A stretch of DNA of 64,000 nt, taken from a virus. The stretch lies in IMG/VR virus record IMGVR_UViG_3300021962_000025, positions 96,001-160,000 of that record; one strand, 5' to 3'. This document shows positions 45,811 to 49,842 of this stretch, piece by piece. Both the position numbers and the translations under genes were made by a program. Every line of letters starts with the position of its first letter. Within the stretch, counting starts at the first letter, position 1. The notes below the pieces were generated by a model. That model saw only the letters and a program-made list of their open reading frames with translations, was not told the origin of the DNA and did no database searches.

Positions 45811-48102
45811 ATGAGTTTTTTAAGTCAAAATAATGCAGAATTCCTCTCAGCAAGGTTAACCCAAAAGGGTAGAAGATCCATTGCTCAAGGAAATTTTCAA
45901 ATTAAATTTTTCCAAATAGGAGATTCTGAATTTGATTATACCGCACCGTTCAATAGTTTGGATGGTATACAAGATAACCCACAACAAAATGTTTTTTCAC
46001 CTTTCGATAAAGACTCACAAGTTAAATACCCGTATAAATTAGATAATTCTGATACTACAACCACATATGGTGTACCTATTATGGATTCTATTACGGAAAC
46101 AATAAGAAACGGAATGGGACCTGCGGGTTTCGTAACTGAACATAAAGAATACGATTCCGTGGAGTGTAGTGGTACGACAATTGAATGTACTAGTATTAGA
46201 TTACCACTATCGGGTTTTACGGGAACTAATACAATTACATTTACTCAGACAATCAATTACGGTACATGTACAGGAATTACTCAAACAGATGAGGATATAC
46301 TTAACATACATAGTTTTAATGATGTTGAATTTATAACAATTGCGTTTGGTAATGAGTTTGTAAATGAGGATCAGGTTGTTACGGGGAACTCCATGAGTCT
46401 TATATATAAGATTACTGGAATAACAACAGTAACAGGTAGTACAACAACACCCAACTGCGATGTTATAATAACAGGACAAACCACATTATATTTAGACAGG
46501 AACACCCCTGACTTATCATCATTGTCGGGATACGCACAAATAATCAGAAATGAGTGTAGAATTGAAAATCCGATAAGTGGCGAAACTTCACCATCTTGTG
46601 TCTCAAATCAGATCGATCCAAGTGAACAACACGATCCATGGACATTAAATGTAGTATGGCAAGAAAAACCAATTGGTTCAGATGTCAGTGGTAACGATGA
46701 AAGTGTAAGTGGTTACACCAGTAGTAAACATATCTCAACTATGGAATATTTGGGTTATGGGATATCAGACGGTCAGGTGACGAATACCGGAACAACGTAC
46801 TACAATTCATATGATGAGGTCATAACGGTGGTCCCTGAAGAACAAAAATGTATTGCGATAATTCACTATTCTGAGTTAGGACATATATTTGATGATCCCG
46901 ATAGATTTTTTAAATACGATGACTATATAGGGTCGTCAAATACTGAGGGTGTGTTGGTCGAAGACGAATTAGTCACTGACATTGAGTTTTTTAACGTATA
47001 TATTCCTTTTATACATTATGAAAATAGTACGGGTACAACTATCGGTGCTGAATTTAAAATGGATATAACCGATTACTATTTAGATTCAACTGTTGCGGGA
47101 ACTCCTGGTGATATAAGAACACAATATATTAAGTACAGATACCTATTAGATGAAATCGGTAAAAAAGTCGGTAAGGTATTCGTTGACAAAAAAATAATTG
47201 TTTTTGACGACCAAGAATTGGTAGCCATATTGGATTATAGATCTAATAGAAGATTTACTTTACCGGCACCAAAAACATACCATATACCAAGTGATAACTC
47301 ACCCGCAAATTCAGTAATATCGGGCGGAACGGCACAGACTTTTTGGATGACTTACATGTTTGAATACACGGGAGATTCACAACTTAATAGTCTACCGTGT
47401 AATTATTTCTCTAAAATAGAAGTTAACTCAGGGGGAGAATGTGATGTGACTTACCCATCTAATATTGCTTTTAAATTTGGAGGAGAAGAGTATCACCCCA
47501 ACACCGTTGGATCATTCCAACACATGAAGACGGCATTTTCTGATGTTATAGATGGTTATGTTGCGGATAGAATGTGGGTGATAATACAAGAAACAACGGA
47601 CGAGGTTGATTTATTACCCGATCCAAAATTGTGGCAAAAAATAGATGTTACTAGTAAAATACCTAACCATACTTTGGGTTCTCTAATAGATCCGTCAGAT
47701 TTGAGAGATCATAGTTTTATTATAACAGGGTTAGAATTTCAAAATGCGAGTCTCTTTGATTTAGAAACTTACTTAAAAAACAATCCATCAGACACAAATT
47801 ATTTGGGAGACTTATCGTACACCAACGAACCACAATTCGGTGACGAACAACCATTCCCCGGAAGTGTCAAATTGGTTAGATGTACAGATATTGAGGAAAT
47901 GAGGTTCTTAGTTAACTTACCTAATACTCAATTTGTAACTACACAGAACCCGACATTCAGTCAAGAACAGAGAAATGCCACTAAGTATGTAACAGAAGTG
48001 GCCCTTTTAGATCAAAACAAAAACGTTTTGGTTACCGCTAAGACATCGTCACCCATTAAAAGGGTTGGTACTCAGGTCTTCTCAGTAAAAATAGATTTCT
48101 AG
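45811..48102 (+). CDS. Tail collar/fibre-attachment protein, gpH N-terminal (DUF3751)-like fold with a large insertion
   Basis: N-terminal ARLTQKGRRSIAQGNFQIKFFQIGDSE and C-terminal VTEVALLDQNKNVLVTAKTSSPIKR...VKIDF; TATTTAT at 45774. Confidence 0.6.
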   Translation: MSFLSQNNAEFLSARLTQKGRRSIAQGNFQIKFFQIGDSEFDYTAPFNSLDGIQDNPQQNVFSPFDKDSQVKYPYKLDNSDTTTTYGVPIMDSITETIRNGMGPAGFVTEHKEYDSVECSGTTIECTSIRLPLSGFTGTNTITFTQTINYGTCTGITQTDEDILNIHSFNDVEFITIAFGNEFVNEDQVVTGNSMSLIYKITGITTVTGSTTTPNCDVIITGQTTLYLDRNTPDLSSLSGYAQIIRNECRIENPISGETSPSCVSNQIDPSEQHDPWTLNVVWQEKPIGSDVSGNDESVSGYTSSKHISTMEYLGYGISDGQVTNTGTTYYNSYDEVITVVPEEQKCIAIIHYSELGHIFDDPDRFFKYDDYIGSSNTEGVLVEDELVTDIEFFNVYIPFIHYENSTGTTIGAEFKMDITDYYLDSTVAGTPGDIRTQYIKYRYLLDEIGKKVGKVFVDKKIIVFDDQELVAILDYRSNRRFTLPAPKTYHIPSDNSPANSVISGGTAQTFWMTYMFEYTGDSQLNSLPCNYFSKIEVNSGGECDVTYPSNIAFKFGGEEYHPNTVGSFQHMKTAFSDVIDGYVADRMWVIIQETTDEVDLLPDPKLWQKIDVTSKIPNHTLGSLIDPSDLRDHSFIITGLEFQNASLFDLETYLKNNPSDTNYLGDLSYTNEPQFGDEQPFPGSVKLVRCTDIEEMRFLVNLPNTQFVTTQNPTFSQEQRNATKYVTEVALLDQNKNVLVTAKTSSPIKRVGTQVFSVKIDF

Positions 48103-48156
48103 TTTAGTATTTACAATATTCAAAAAAAAGCTTATTTATTATTCATAATATATTAT

Positions 48157-48762
48157 ATGGATAATAAGTTTAAAAACAAGGCGAAGATCTTAGGTTTAGA
48201 TATTTCGACAAAGACTATTGGATGGGCGTTATTTGATATAACGGGTTCCCATTTATTAGAATTAACCCATTTCTCACCAAAGATTAAACCACAACCAGAA
48301 GACAAGATTGAAGAATTGTTGAAGAAGGCGGACGGGTTTAGAAAACATCTTGAGAATTATAAAGATATGGGTATCACCAAAGTCATTATCGAAGAACCAT
48401 TATTAAACTCTAATAACGTTTATACTGTGGGTACACTACTTAGATATAATAGTATGGTCTTAAAGTCGTGTTATGATGTGTTGGGTATAGTCCCAACATT
48501 TATCTCCACTTATAATGCAAGGAAGTTTGCATTCCCTGATTTAGTTGGACCAAACGATAAAGGGAGAAATGTTTTGTTCGGTGGATACCCGAAAAATATT
48601 GATAAAAAACACGTTATATGGGAACATGTGAATGATTTGTTTCCTGAAGTTAAATGGGTTCAAACTAAGACGGGTAACCTCAAAAAAGAGAATTACGATA
48701 TGAGCGATGCCGCTACGGCGGTTATTGGGTACGTGAATAAATTAAAGACGGAGAAAAGTTAA
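48157..48762 (+). CDS. RuvC-like Holliday junction resolvase
   Basis: ILGLDISTKTIGWA, VIIEEP, DMSDAAT (RNase H-fold acidic residues). Confidence 0.8.
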   Translation: MDNKFKNKAKILGLDISTKTIGWALFDITGSHLLELTHFSPKIKPQPEDKIEELLKKADGFRKHLENYKDMGITKVIIEEPLLNSNNVYTVGTLLRYNSMVLKSCYDVLGIVPTFISTYNARKFAFPDLVGPNDKGRNVLFGGYPKNIDKKHVIWEHVNDLFPEVKWVQTKTGNLKKENYDMSDAATAVIGYVNKLKTEKS

Positions 48763-48769
48763 AAGGTAC

Positions 48770-48801
48770 TTTACTTTTTATTTTTAATTACGTATATTTA
48801 T
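48770..48801 (+). promoter_or_regulatory. TTTACT-N17-TATATT promoter with overlapping TATTTAT motif, upstream of the candidate small RNA
   Basis: Exact 17-nt spacer; TATTTAT at 48795-48801. Confidence 0.5.
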
Positions 48802-48804
48802 TTA

Positions 48805-48874
48805 CGGACGGGGCGTGTAGCAATACACGTTAGTTGGTGTGTCCCAGGGAGTGGTGTCCCTGGGACTTTTTTTT
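48805..48874 (+). ncRNA. Candidate ~70-nt small RNA (GNRA hairpin plus terminator)
   Basis: CGTGTA-GCAA-TACACG hairpin at 48814-48829, then the terminator hairpin; a GC-rich island in an AT-rich intergenic region. Confidence 0.45.
48841..48874 (+). terminator. Rho-independent terminator
   Basis: gtcccaggga-gtggtg-tccctgggac (perfect 10-bp stem) followed by T8. Confidence 0.85.
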
Positions 48875-48900
48875 CTCATTTTTTTTTCGTATATTTTAGT

Positions 48901-49842
48901 ATGATGACCCAAGAAGTAGACTTCATACCCATAGTTGATGTACTCCACGACGTTTTCGGTGACAGCCGTTACCATAACGAGTATAGGGGTCAAATTACTT
49001 TTGACTGTCCCGTATGTTCTCATGATATAAAAGGATTGGATGATGGGGATGGTAAAGGTAATTTGGAGATTAACTATAAAATGTATGTCTATAAATGTTG
49101 GGTCTGTGCGGAGACTCACGATACTCATGGACACTTAACCAAACTAGTAAAAAAATACGGTTCACCTAAACAGATAAAGGATTTTCATTTATATAGTCCT
49201 GAAGAAATAGTTTCAGTTGGTAAGGGGGAATACAAAAAAATAAGACTCCCTAAAGAGTATGTTGATTTTATGGGGGCTAGTGAGGGTAGAAAGATCACCC
49301 ATAGATATAAACAGGCACTTAATTATCTTAAAAGTCGAAACATAACAGACGATATGATAGAGACGTATAAGATAGGGTATTGTGATAGTGGACAATACGA
49401 GAATAGAATTATCATACCGTCGTATGACTCAGAGGACGAAATAAATTATTTTGTTGCTAGATCTTATTTGAGATATAGTAAACGAAAATATATGAATCCA
49501 CAAGCCGATAAGGAAAGTCTAATTTGGAATGAACACCTTATCGATTGGGATAAGCCCGTTTACGTTGTGGAGGGTGCCTTTGACAGTATTTTCCTAAAAA
49601 ACTCTATACCGATGTTAGGAAAGTACATGACAGATAAATTACTTATGATGATTTATGAGAGATCATCAAAAGTGGTAATTGTCTTAGATGGGGATGCGTG
49701 GGCGGACACTGAAAAATTATACCACAAATTAAATGTCGGTAGATTAATGGGTAAGGTGTCTGTAATAAAATTACCCTTAGATATGGATATTGCAGATCTT
49801 AAAGGAGATCTGTCGTCATACAATGAAATAAAACTTGATTAA
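48901..49842 (+). CDS. dnaG: DNA primase (zinc-binding domain plus TOPRIM)
   Basis: CPVC...CWVC zinc motif; RIIIPSYD...YFVAR; VVEGAFD; LDGDA. Confidence 0.88.
   Translation: MMTQEVDFIPIVDVLHDVFGDSRYHNEYRGQITFDCPVCSHDIKGLDDGDGKGNLEINYKMYVYKCWVCAETHDTHGHLTKLVKKYGSPKQIKDFHLYSPEEIVSVGKGEYKKIRLPKEYVDFMGASEGRKITHRYKQALNYLKSRNITDDMIETYKIGYCDSGQYENRIIIPSYDSEDEINYFVARSYLRYSKRKYMNPQADKESLIWNEHLIDWDKPVYVVEGAFDSIFLKNSIPMLGKYMTDKLLMMIYERSSKVVIVLDGDAWADTEKLYHKLNVGRLMGKVSVIKLPLDMDIADLKGDLSSYNEIKLD

Follow-up and report, generated by a model that had tools for sequence, protein, structure and literature searches.

The window analysed here, a stretch of 64,000 nucleotides, corresponds to bases 96001-160000 of the 183,758-bp IMG/VR viral record IMGVR_UViG_3300021962_000025, a genome of 36% G+C. 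Within it, the genes of a RuvC-like resolvase and of a DnaG-type primase are separated by a spacer of 138 bp, which holds a predicted promoter, two hairpins, a run of eight T and the element CGTATATTTT, in the following arrangement:

48157..48762, + strand: gene of a RuvC-like Holliday-junction resolvase of 201 aa, upstream neighbour of the RNA (phrog_159, E=1.4e-8; phrog_827, E=2e-4)
48770..48798, + strand: predicted promoter of the RNA (-35 TTTACT, 48770-48775; 17-bp spacer; -10 TATATT, 48793-48798)
48805..48874, + strand: predicted RNA of about 70 nt (covariance model match at 48805-48875, 80.1 bits, E=3e-14)
48806..48813, + strand: conserved 5' segment GGACGGGG, consensus GGACGGGA (ACGG at 48808-48811 invariant; zero-entropy columns 4-7)
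48814..48829, + strand: hairpin P1 (6-bp stem, CGTGTA at 48814-48819 with TACACG at 48824-48829; GNRA loop GCAA at 48820-48823)
48830..48840, + strand: linker TTAGTTGGTGT, as RNA UUAGUUGGUGU (GUUGG at 48833-48837 invariant; the base before GUUGG always a purine)
48841..48874, + strand: predicted intrinsic terminator P2 (10-bp stem, arms GTCCCAGGGA at 48841-48850 and TCCCTGGGAC at 48857-48866; loop GTGGTG at 48851-48856; T8 at 48867-48874)
48875..48900, + strand: promoter-like module of the primase gene (T-rich tract, TCA, T-rich tract, CG, -10 TATATT at 48890-48895, 5 nt to the ATG)
48901..49842, + strand: gene of a DnaG-type primase, downstream neighbour of the RNA (PF08275, E=4.6e-9; phrog_47, E=9e-40)

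The resolvase-like protein has no match in Pfam and no relative among the 50,697 GenBank phage records searched with tblastn. At the DNA level, blastn finds no relative of the locus in cultured phages, and the matches obtained with the RNA of a relative as the query, being limited to T-rich stretches, were discarded. Just 5' of the resolvase-like gene, within the replication module, lies the gene of a 763-aa protein (45811-48102, + strand), which has no match in Pfam, PHROG or the PDB sequences. Outside the window, on the minus strand, ARAGORN predicts a tmRNA (predicted tag VDSKVAVA) and a cluster of nine tRNA genes (G000:C1:22912-27282), one of which has an odd anticodon loop.

An earlier note, made from the DNA letters alone, had proposed that the spacer encodes a small RNA with a GC-rich segment of about 70 nt, a CGTGTA-GCAA-TACACG hairpin and a perfect 10-bp terminator followed by T8, and these three elements are all found. 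The G+C content of the segment is 55%, versus 36% for the genome, and the folding energy of the 76-nt RNA is -36.4 kcal/mol (z = -5.8), a value that none of 200 shuffled sequences equals. From the position of the promoter, the RNA would start at 48804-48806, and it would end within the U tract. With seven G-C pairs out of ten in its stem and a loop of 6 nt, P2 has the make-up of an intrinsic (Rho-independent) terminator. It is the sole strong terminator within the 10 kb scanned, and no other GC-rich hairpin with a T tail that bears the P2 loop motif is found genome-wide.

The note was also right in its claims that the RNA contains no sense ORF and is not tRNA-like. The only sense frames across it are two of 21 codons, starting with TTG/GTG, which run through the T tract and are broken by 1-nt indels in relatives; on the opposite strand, the sole frame (48802-49134) is mostly antisense to the primase gene and has no match in anything tested. 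ARAGORN, the same program that finds the nine tRNAs and the tmRNA elsewhere in the genome, reports no tRNA or tmRNA gene in the window. As for the linker, it is present at 48830-48840 as described, but its single-stranded state is uncertain, and it may not be free but paired with the 5' segment. RNAfold pairs 48807-48809 with 48833-48835 and 48812-48813 with 48830-48831, and the matching pairs of the consensus form in 93-100% of the relatives, with changes on one side only (G.U to A-U). In a single case, L217, two changes (GGAC to GUAC and GUUGG to GUUAC) jointly fit this helix, which is not proven, since its columns hardly vary.

Relatives of the locus were gathered via the primase and via the resolvase-like protein (216 IMG/VR relatives found, of which the best 80, at 78-91% identity, were kept), and they carry the RNA element in the same position. 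A covariance model (R1), built from 39 sequences, matches 84 of 94 related loci, with 60-92 bits save for three atypical or cut copies; the copy of the window, at 80 bits, is the only one in its own 183.8-kb record. The model gives further matches as well, and a looser DNA pattern retrieves 101 IMG/VR contigs with the element. A first, narrower pattern had also returned four chance matches in G+C-rich viral contigs.

The covariation statistics were computed on 43 distinct sequences. The earlier note had called for such a comparison and would have given up a separate RNA if there were no discrete transcript and the first hairpin proved unconserved in relatives; both hairpins are kept with compensatory changes, at 6 of 6 pairs in P1 and 10 of 10 in P2, that is, at all 16 base pairs. 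The four outer pairs of P1 are formed in 100% of the sequences and the two inner ones in 90.6%, and P2 is paired at 96.3%. Overall, 96.5% of the cells are paired, versus 64.4% in shuffled alignments (none of 500 reaches the observed value) and 33-65% with slid partners; in an alignment made with MAFFT only, the figure is 93%. The pairs with the highest mutual information are exactly those of P1 and P2. Wobble cells comprise 60 G.U/U.G versus 0 A.C/C.A, which designates the + strand as the folding strand.

The consensus reads (a)gGACGGGaC, P1 (6 bp, mostly with a GAAA loop), GUUURGUUGGU, P2 (10 bp, loop GUGGUG) and U8-9, with zero variation in ACGG, GUUGG and the terminator loop GUGGUG. Most members have GAAA, GUAA or GCAA as the P1 loop and some have UUAAAAU or a longer one, so that the sequence of this loop is not essential. 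The P2 stem varies freely, its G-rich and C-rich arms being even exchanged, while the loop and the U tract are invariant. P1 and P2 do not overlap, the linker lying between them, and none of the other columns shows covariation with the arms of P2; this lack of a covarying alternative pairing for the terminator arms argues against a switch of the riboswitch or attenuator type. A G-quadruplex was considered and dropped, half of the members having AGUUGG, not GGUUGG. Two variants stand apart: in L024 (2653-2777), about 55 nt are inserted near the tip of P1, leaving its base and all other parts of the RNA intact, and L009 (2827-2959, the same as L210) has a variant RNA of about 130 nt, in which a linker GGUUGGU is followed by its own complement ACCAACC, an extra hairpin and a terminator with the loop CACGGUGUAA.

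The position of the element is as constant as its fold. Of 84 distinct contexts, 83 belong to the family and one to a chance match, and 73 of the 83 have the resolvase-like gene at most 150 nt upstream and the primase gene at most 150 nt downstream. In L045, L238, L270, L277 and the L290 type, an inserted gene separates the RNA from the resolvase-like gene and leaves the RNA unit intact; the insert is a dehydrogenase-like gene in three contexts and a different gene in the L290-type clade, and after both types of insertion the RNA and its promoter remain in front of the primase gene. In L006/L014 (one contig), a gene lies between the RNA and the primase gene, which are 1.3 kb apart, and the RNA unit is again intact. 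L010-type phages have a primase gene without the RNA element nearby. As the unit stays intact despite insertions on its flanks, it behaves as a self-contained cassette, and it is strongly tied to the replication module.

The promoter TTTACT-N17-TATATT read by the earlier note is present and starts directly after the stop codon of the resolvase-like gene. Sigma-70-like matches in this A+T-rich DNA (37 found versus 42.6 expected per 10 kb) do not exceed chance, so that only its conservation among relatives lends the promoter credibility. In 65 of 66 distinct upstream contexts a -10 hexamer (TATATT, TATACT or TATAAT) is found, ending 4-11 nt, mostly 8-11 nt, 5' of GACGG. A -35 hexamer, mostly TTTACT or TTTACA, lies at 16-18 bp from it in 48 of the 66 contexts, the spacer being 17 bp in 40 of these 48. 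Hairpins and promoter hexamers are thus conserved at a fixed distance, in keeping with the self-contained small-RNA unit first proposed, and this locus appears to be a stand-alone RNA gene, with its own predicted promoter at a fixed distance 5' of the structured part.

The second element pointed out in that note, cgTATATTTT at 48888, is also found ahead of the primase gene (CGTATATTTT, 48888-48897), its TATATT hexamer ending 5 nt before the ATG at 48901; in relatives, the ATG lies 5-11 nt 3' of the hexamer. The suggestion that the small RNA is possibly expressed both early and late is not supported. The second TATATT, being 3' of the terminator, cannot drive the RNA. It is kept at the primase gene in L006 with the RNA 1.3 kb off, and the T-rich/TATATT module stands without the RNA in L006 and L010. 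It also resembles the leaderless-type starts of 11-13 other genes, at which TATA[ATC]T ends 5-10 nt before the ATG, several of them following a terminator and some having a good -35; at 11 genes of this genome the distance is 5-7 nt. We read the second TATATT as a putative promoter of the primase gene itself, from which the mRNA would start with little or no leader; its -35 region is taken up by the T tract of the RNA terminator. A Shine-Dalgarno-like motif is found in only 5 of 166 genes (the long ORFs of the genome). These start regions suggest widespread leaderless or near-leaderless mRNAs and a host not using Shine-Dalgarno sequences, and the scarcity of such motifs suggests a Bacteroidota host.

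In clades whose primase is merely 52-59% identical, the order promoter, 5' hairpin, terminator, primase gene is retained. The 5' hairpin is unrelated in sequence in L219-L235, L246, L248 and L290-L294, and its flanks are altered in L217 and L218. The terminator loops of these divergent clades always contain (U/C)GGUG(U/G), in the form of UUGGUGU, AUGGUGUA, UUGUUGGUGUAC, CACGGUGUAA or UUUUUGGUGGAAA, with CGGUGU in L210 and UGGUGG in L248 as rare variants. The terminator-loop motif is thus the most deeply conserved feature of the family, and this depth of conservation makes it the best candidate for the working site. UGGUG is also complementary to CACCA, a common 3' end of tRNAs, in the manner of the T-box UGGN contact; we rate low the possibility that the loop might contact a tRNA 3' end in this way.

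The family has no catalogued counterpart in Rfam. The Rfam search that had been recommended, run with Rfam 15, returns no family at gathering score for 48000-49600, nor in relatives L020, L217, L219, L290 and L210. The sole match, Spot 42 (RF00021), was rejected, with 36.2 bits versus a gathering score of 80: its terminator hairpin and U tail align with those of the phage RNA and drive the alignment, and the 5' two-thirds aligns to coding and promoter DNA with many non-pairs. A pattern scan of 185,579 bacterial and archaeal species genomes gives seven matches, of which only four have E<=1 with the model, at 13.7-17.4 bits versus 60-92 for most members. These seven cellular matches were judged to be chance, and a host-derived small RNA, copied from a cellular gene, was discarded. 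A 2023 catalogue of candidate structured RNAs from IMG/VR comprises 8,495 unnamed ones (PMC10690425), and the present family may be among them.

The search for targets of the linker, also advised in the earlier note, was run on the phage genome and yielded none: neither exact complements nor gene start regions make a target stand out, and, over the starts of 166 phage genes, shuffled seeds give duplex energies as good as those of the RNA. Complements of the linker are enriched in the genome only because its Thr/Pro/Asn-rich coding DNA is C/A-rich, and the best exact complements are one of 12 nt, deep within a 3678-aa ORF at its codon 1236, and one of 11 nt, antisense to a gene. In the T arm of a phage tRNA-Asp, 9 nt pair with the 5' segment of the RNA (-18.5 kcal/mol), which was judged a coincidence, as near-complements in such number are expected genome-wide. 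An 8-nt complement in the leader of the family-B DNA polymerase gene (PolB) was likewise set aside, as it is part of a hairpin in that leader and three relatives have not retained it.

This PolB gene has features of its own. A promoter, T-rich and then CNTATAYTT, is conserved ahead of it (L295:475-550, that is, G000:C1:73274-73349; about 1425-1500 in L296-L298), as is a structured 5' leader, whose hairpin is flanked by AAUGUAAC and GUCACAUU; between this genome and three relatives the flanks are kept and the hairpin sequence differs. The leader hairpin may serve as a translational operator. The resolvase-like ORF of most main-clade relatives has GGCAACTAA at its end (for instance L020:2600-2615), of which 7-8 nt are complementary to UU(A/G)GUUG of the RNA linker, the A/G variation of the linker keeping the pairing with the U of this tail. 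The tail is absent from the window's own subclade (48750-48762) and is thus not a general target.

Taken together, the covariation, the conserved promoter and the constant position make it very probable that a discrete conserved RNA is made from this locus. It would be a genuine gene with its own transcription, encoding a structured RNA of about 70 nt, and it belongs to a family common to a large group of uncultured large and jumbo phages. As to its function, the reading that we prefer, tentatively, is that of a trans-acting early regulatory RNA, the G/U-rich loop of which, perhaps with the linker, would pair with C/A-rich sites. What we infer is that the locus is transcribed, where the RNA begins and ends, and that it acts in trans by base-pairing. 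Transcription would start at about 48805 from the host-type promoter TTTACT-N17-TATATT. The 5' half would form a long hairpin, P1 with its GNRA cap, which G.U-rich pairs between the 5' GGACGGG and UU..GUU of the linker probably lengthen; as it would begin only a few bases from the 5' end, this hairpin would protect that end of the RNA. The 3' half would be a strong intrinsic terminator, also ending the resolvase-like transcript. The working part would most likely be the invariant loop GUGGUG, or (U/C)GGUG(U/G) in all clades, perhaps with GUUGG of the linker: the loop would be the first to contact a C/A-rich site (..ACACCA..) in an RNA of the host or the phage, and the pairing would alter the translation or stability of this target early in infection. 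It counts against this reading that no phage target was found and that the RNA always adjoins the primase gene, which fits a role in cis equally well.

A role in cis is one explanation that fits the gene order, and we regard it as rather unlikely. The element would then be the promoter-proximal leader of a primase/replication operon and the short RNA a by-product: polymerase, starting from a constitutive promoter, would stop at the terminator, and a phage factor or an RNA element would permit read-through into the primase, exonuclease and further genes, as at PR'-tR' of lambda (6S RNA, StxS). Promoter, structured RNA, terminator and primase gene indeed follow in fixed order in the 73 contexts, the arrangement persists in divergent clades, and the RNA is found directly 5' of the primase gene after two independent insertions behind the resolvase-like gene. 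However, the primase gene has its own conserved -10 module, which also occurs alone (L006, L010), the terminator is strong (10 bp, U8-9), no antiterminator pairing is conserved, and control of read-through does not explain the conserved terminator loop. This loop and the other two invariant segments, next to stems that vary freely, could alternatively be recognised by a protein, which we consider unlikely: the RNA would be a decoy or cofactor whose ACGG/GUUGG helix and GUGGUG loop would titrate or guide a phage or host protein, for instance one that acts in replication or recombination and is encoded nearby, or an RNA-binding protein of the host. The invariant bases in the possible helix between 5' segment and linker, which is rich in G.U pairs and changes on one side only, are as compatible with recognition by a protein as with base-pairing, and the lack of a base-pairing target points the same way. 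Nevertheless, there is no candidate protein, nor any array of repeated motifs typical of sponge RNAs, and the divergent clades drop the 5' helix entirely and keep the loop motif only. For Bacteroides RbpB, no short binding motif is described with which these segments could be compared.

The place of the element beside the primase gene, within the replication module, could also reflect an action at the DNA level. In such a replication start, activated by transcription, the promoter would open the duplex and the hairpins of the + strand would present GGTGT/TTGGT as the entry or start site of the DnaG-type primase. These motifs resemble the recognition sites of the T7 (GTGTC, TGGTC) and T4 (GTT) primases, the origins of both phages being promoter-dependent; the pairing is specific to the + strand, and a T-rich tract of about 35 bp, easy to unwind, follows immediately 3'. 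We hold this to be very improbable, as the hairpin with U8-9 is a textbook intrinsic terminator, which would release the RNA, and 60 G.U pairs suit RNA better than DNA. Moreover, cumulative GC skew follows gene orientation without a turn at the element (genome position 144.8 kb), and the L010-type phages do without the element near their primase gene. The least probable explanation is that there is no separate gene, the hairpins being the terminator of the resolvase-like gene and a stabilising hairpin of its 3'-UTR and the promoter-like hexamers a product of chance in A+T-rich DNA. Lone promoter-like matches are not above chance here, and P2 must also end the resolvase-like transcript; yet the -10 and -35 are conserved in the 66 contexts in sequence, spacing and distance to the 5' segment, the unit keeps its promoter when inserted genes separate it from the resolvase-like gene, and termination needs neither an invariant loop nor an invariant linker.

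This RNA family, found in about a hundred contigs, with complete covariation and with promoter and terminator both conserved, is very well supported and merits an Rfam entry. It comes from a lineage of uncultured large and jumbo aquatic phages, whose hosts are probably devoid of Hfq and make little use of Shine-Dalgarno sequences. The invariant motif in the terminator loop offers a precise experimental handle, and the fixed place of the RNA beside the primase gene points to a link with the early control of replication. A new principle would be at stake only if the origin/primase explanation were true, in which case the element would be an origin signal of the G4 or T7 type in a jumbo-phage lineage.

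To our knowledge, few phage-encoded small RNAs have an established role, and almost all of them come from coliphages. The OOP RNA of lambda (77 nt) is a cis-antisense RNA which overlaps the 3' end of cII on the opposite strand. Like the regulatory RNA that we favour, it is short, has its own promoter and intrinsic terminator and lies in the replication region. Unlike OOP, the phage RNA is on the same strand as both neighbours, with no credible gene opposite and thus no cis-antisense arrangement, and there is no sequence or Rfam relationship between them. Small RNAs that act via conserved hairpin-loop motifs are known in RNAIII and RsaE of S. aureus (UCCC loops) and in the kissing loops of OxyS and fhlA. 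The phage RNA shares with them a short invariant motif in hairpin loops, including that of the 3' terminator hairpin, and stems that vary, but their motifs are C-rich and pair with the Shine-Dalgarno sequence, whereas its own is G/U-rich, in a phage that, presumably like its host, hardly uses Shine-Dalgarno sequences. A further comparison is with GcvB, an Hfq-dependent enterobacterial small RNA of about 200 nt, whose R1 is a G/U-rich single-stranded seed against C/A-rich mRNA elements: the conserved G/U-rich sequence of the phage RNA would also pair with C/A-rich sites. The seed of GcvB is however single-stranded, whereas the phage motif is in the terminator loop, and Rfam indicates no homology.

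Two further systems resemble the phage RNA in layout. In lambda 6S and StxS, as here, a constitutive promoter is followed by a strong terminator within about 70-200 nt, just 5' of a gene block, and StxS of Stx phages illustrates that a terminated promoter-proximal by-product can be a trans-acting small RNA (PMC7547250). In the phage locus, by contrast, no Q-type antiterminator or qut site is identified, the downstream gene has its own promoter-like element, and structure and loop show conservation by covariation, a trait that the 6S leader does not have. FopS and GibS of Bacteroides combine a 5' functional region with a Rho-independent terminator in a lineage without Hfq; FopS, which is reported to be deposited in Rfam, has its seed in a single-stranded 5' stretch (PMC11697453). 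The phage RNA, which matches no Rfam 15 family, differs from FopS in having its motif in the terminator loop, but it shares with FopS and GibS (PMC11697453) the combination of a 5' functional region and a Rho-independent terminator, and the host phylum may be the same.
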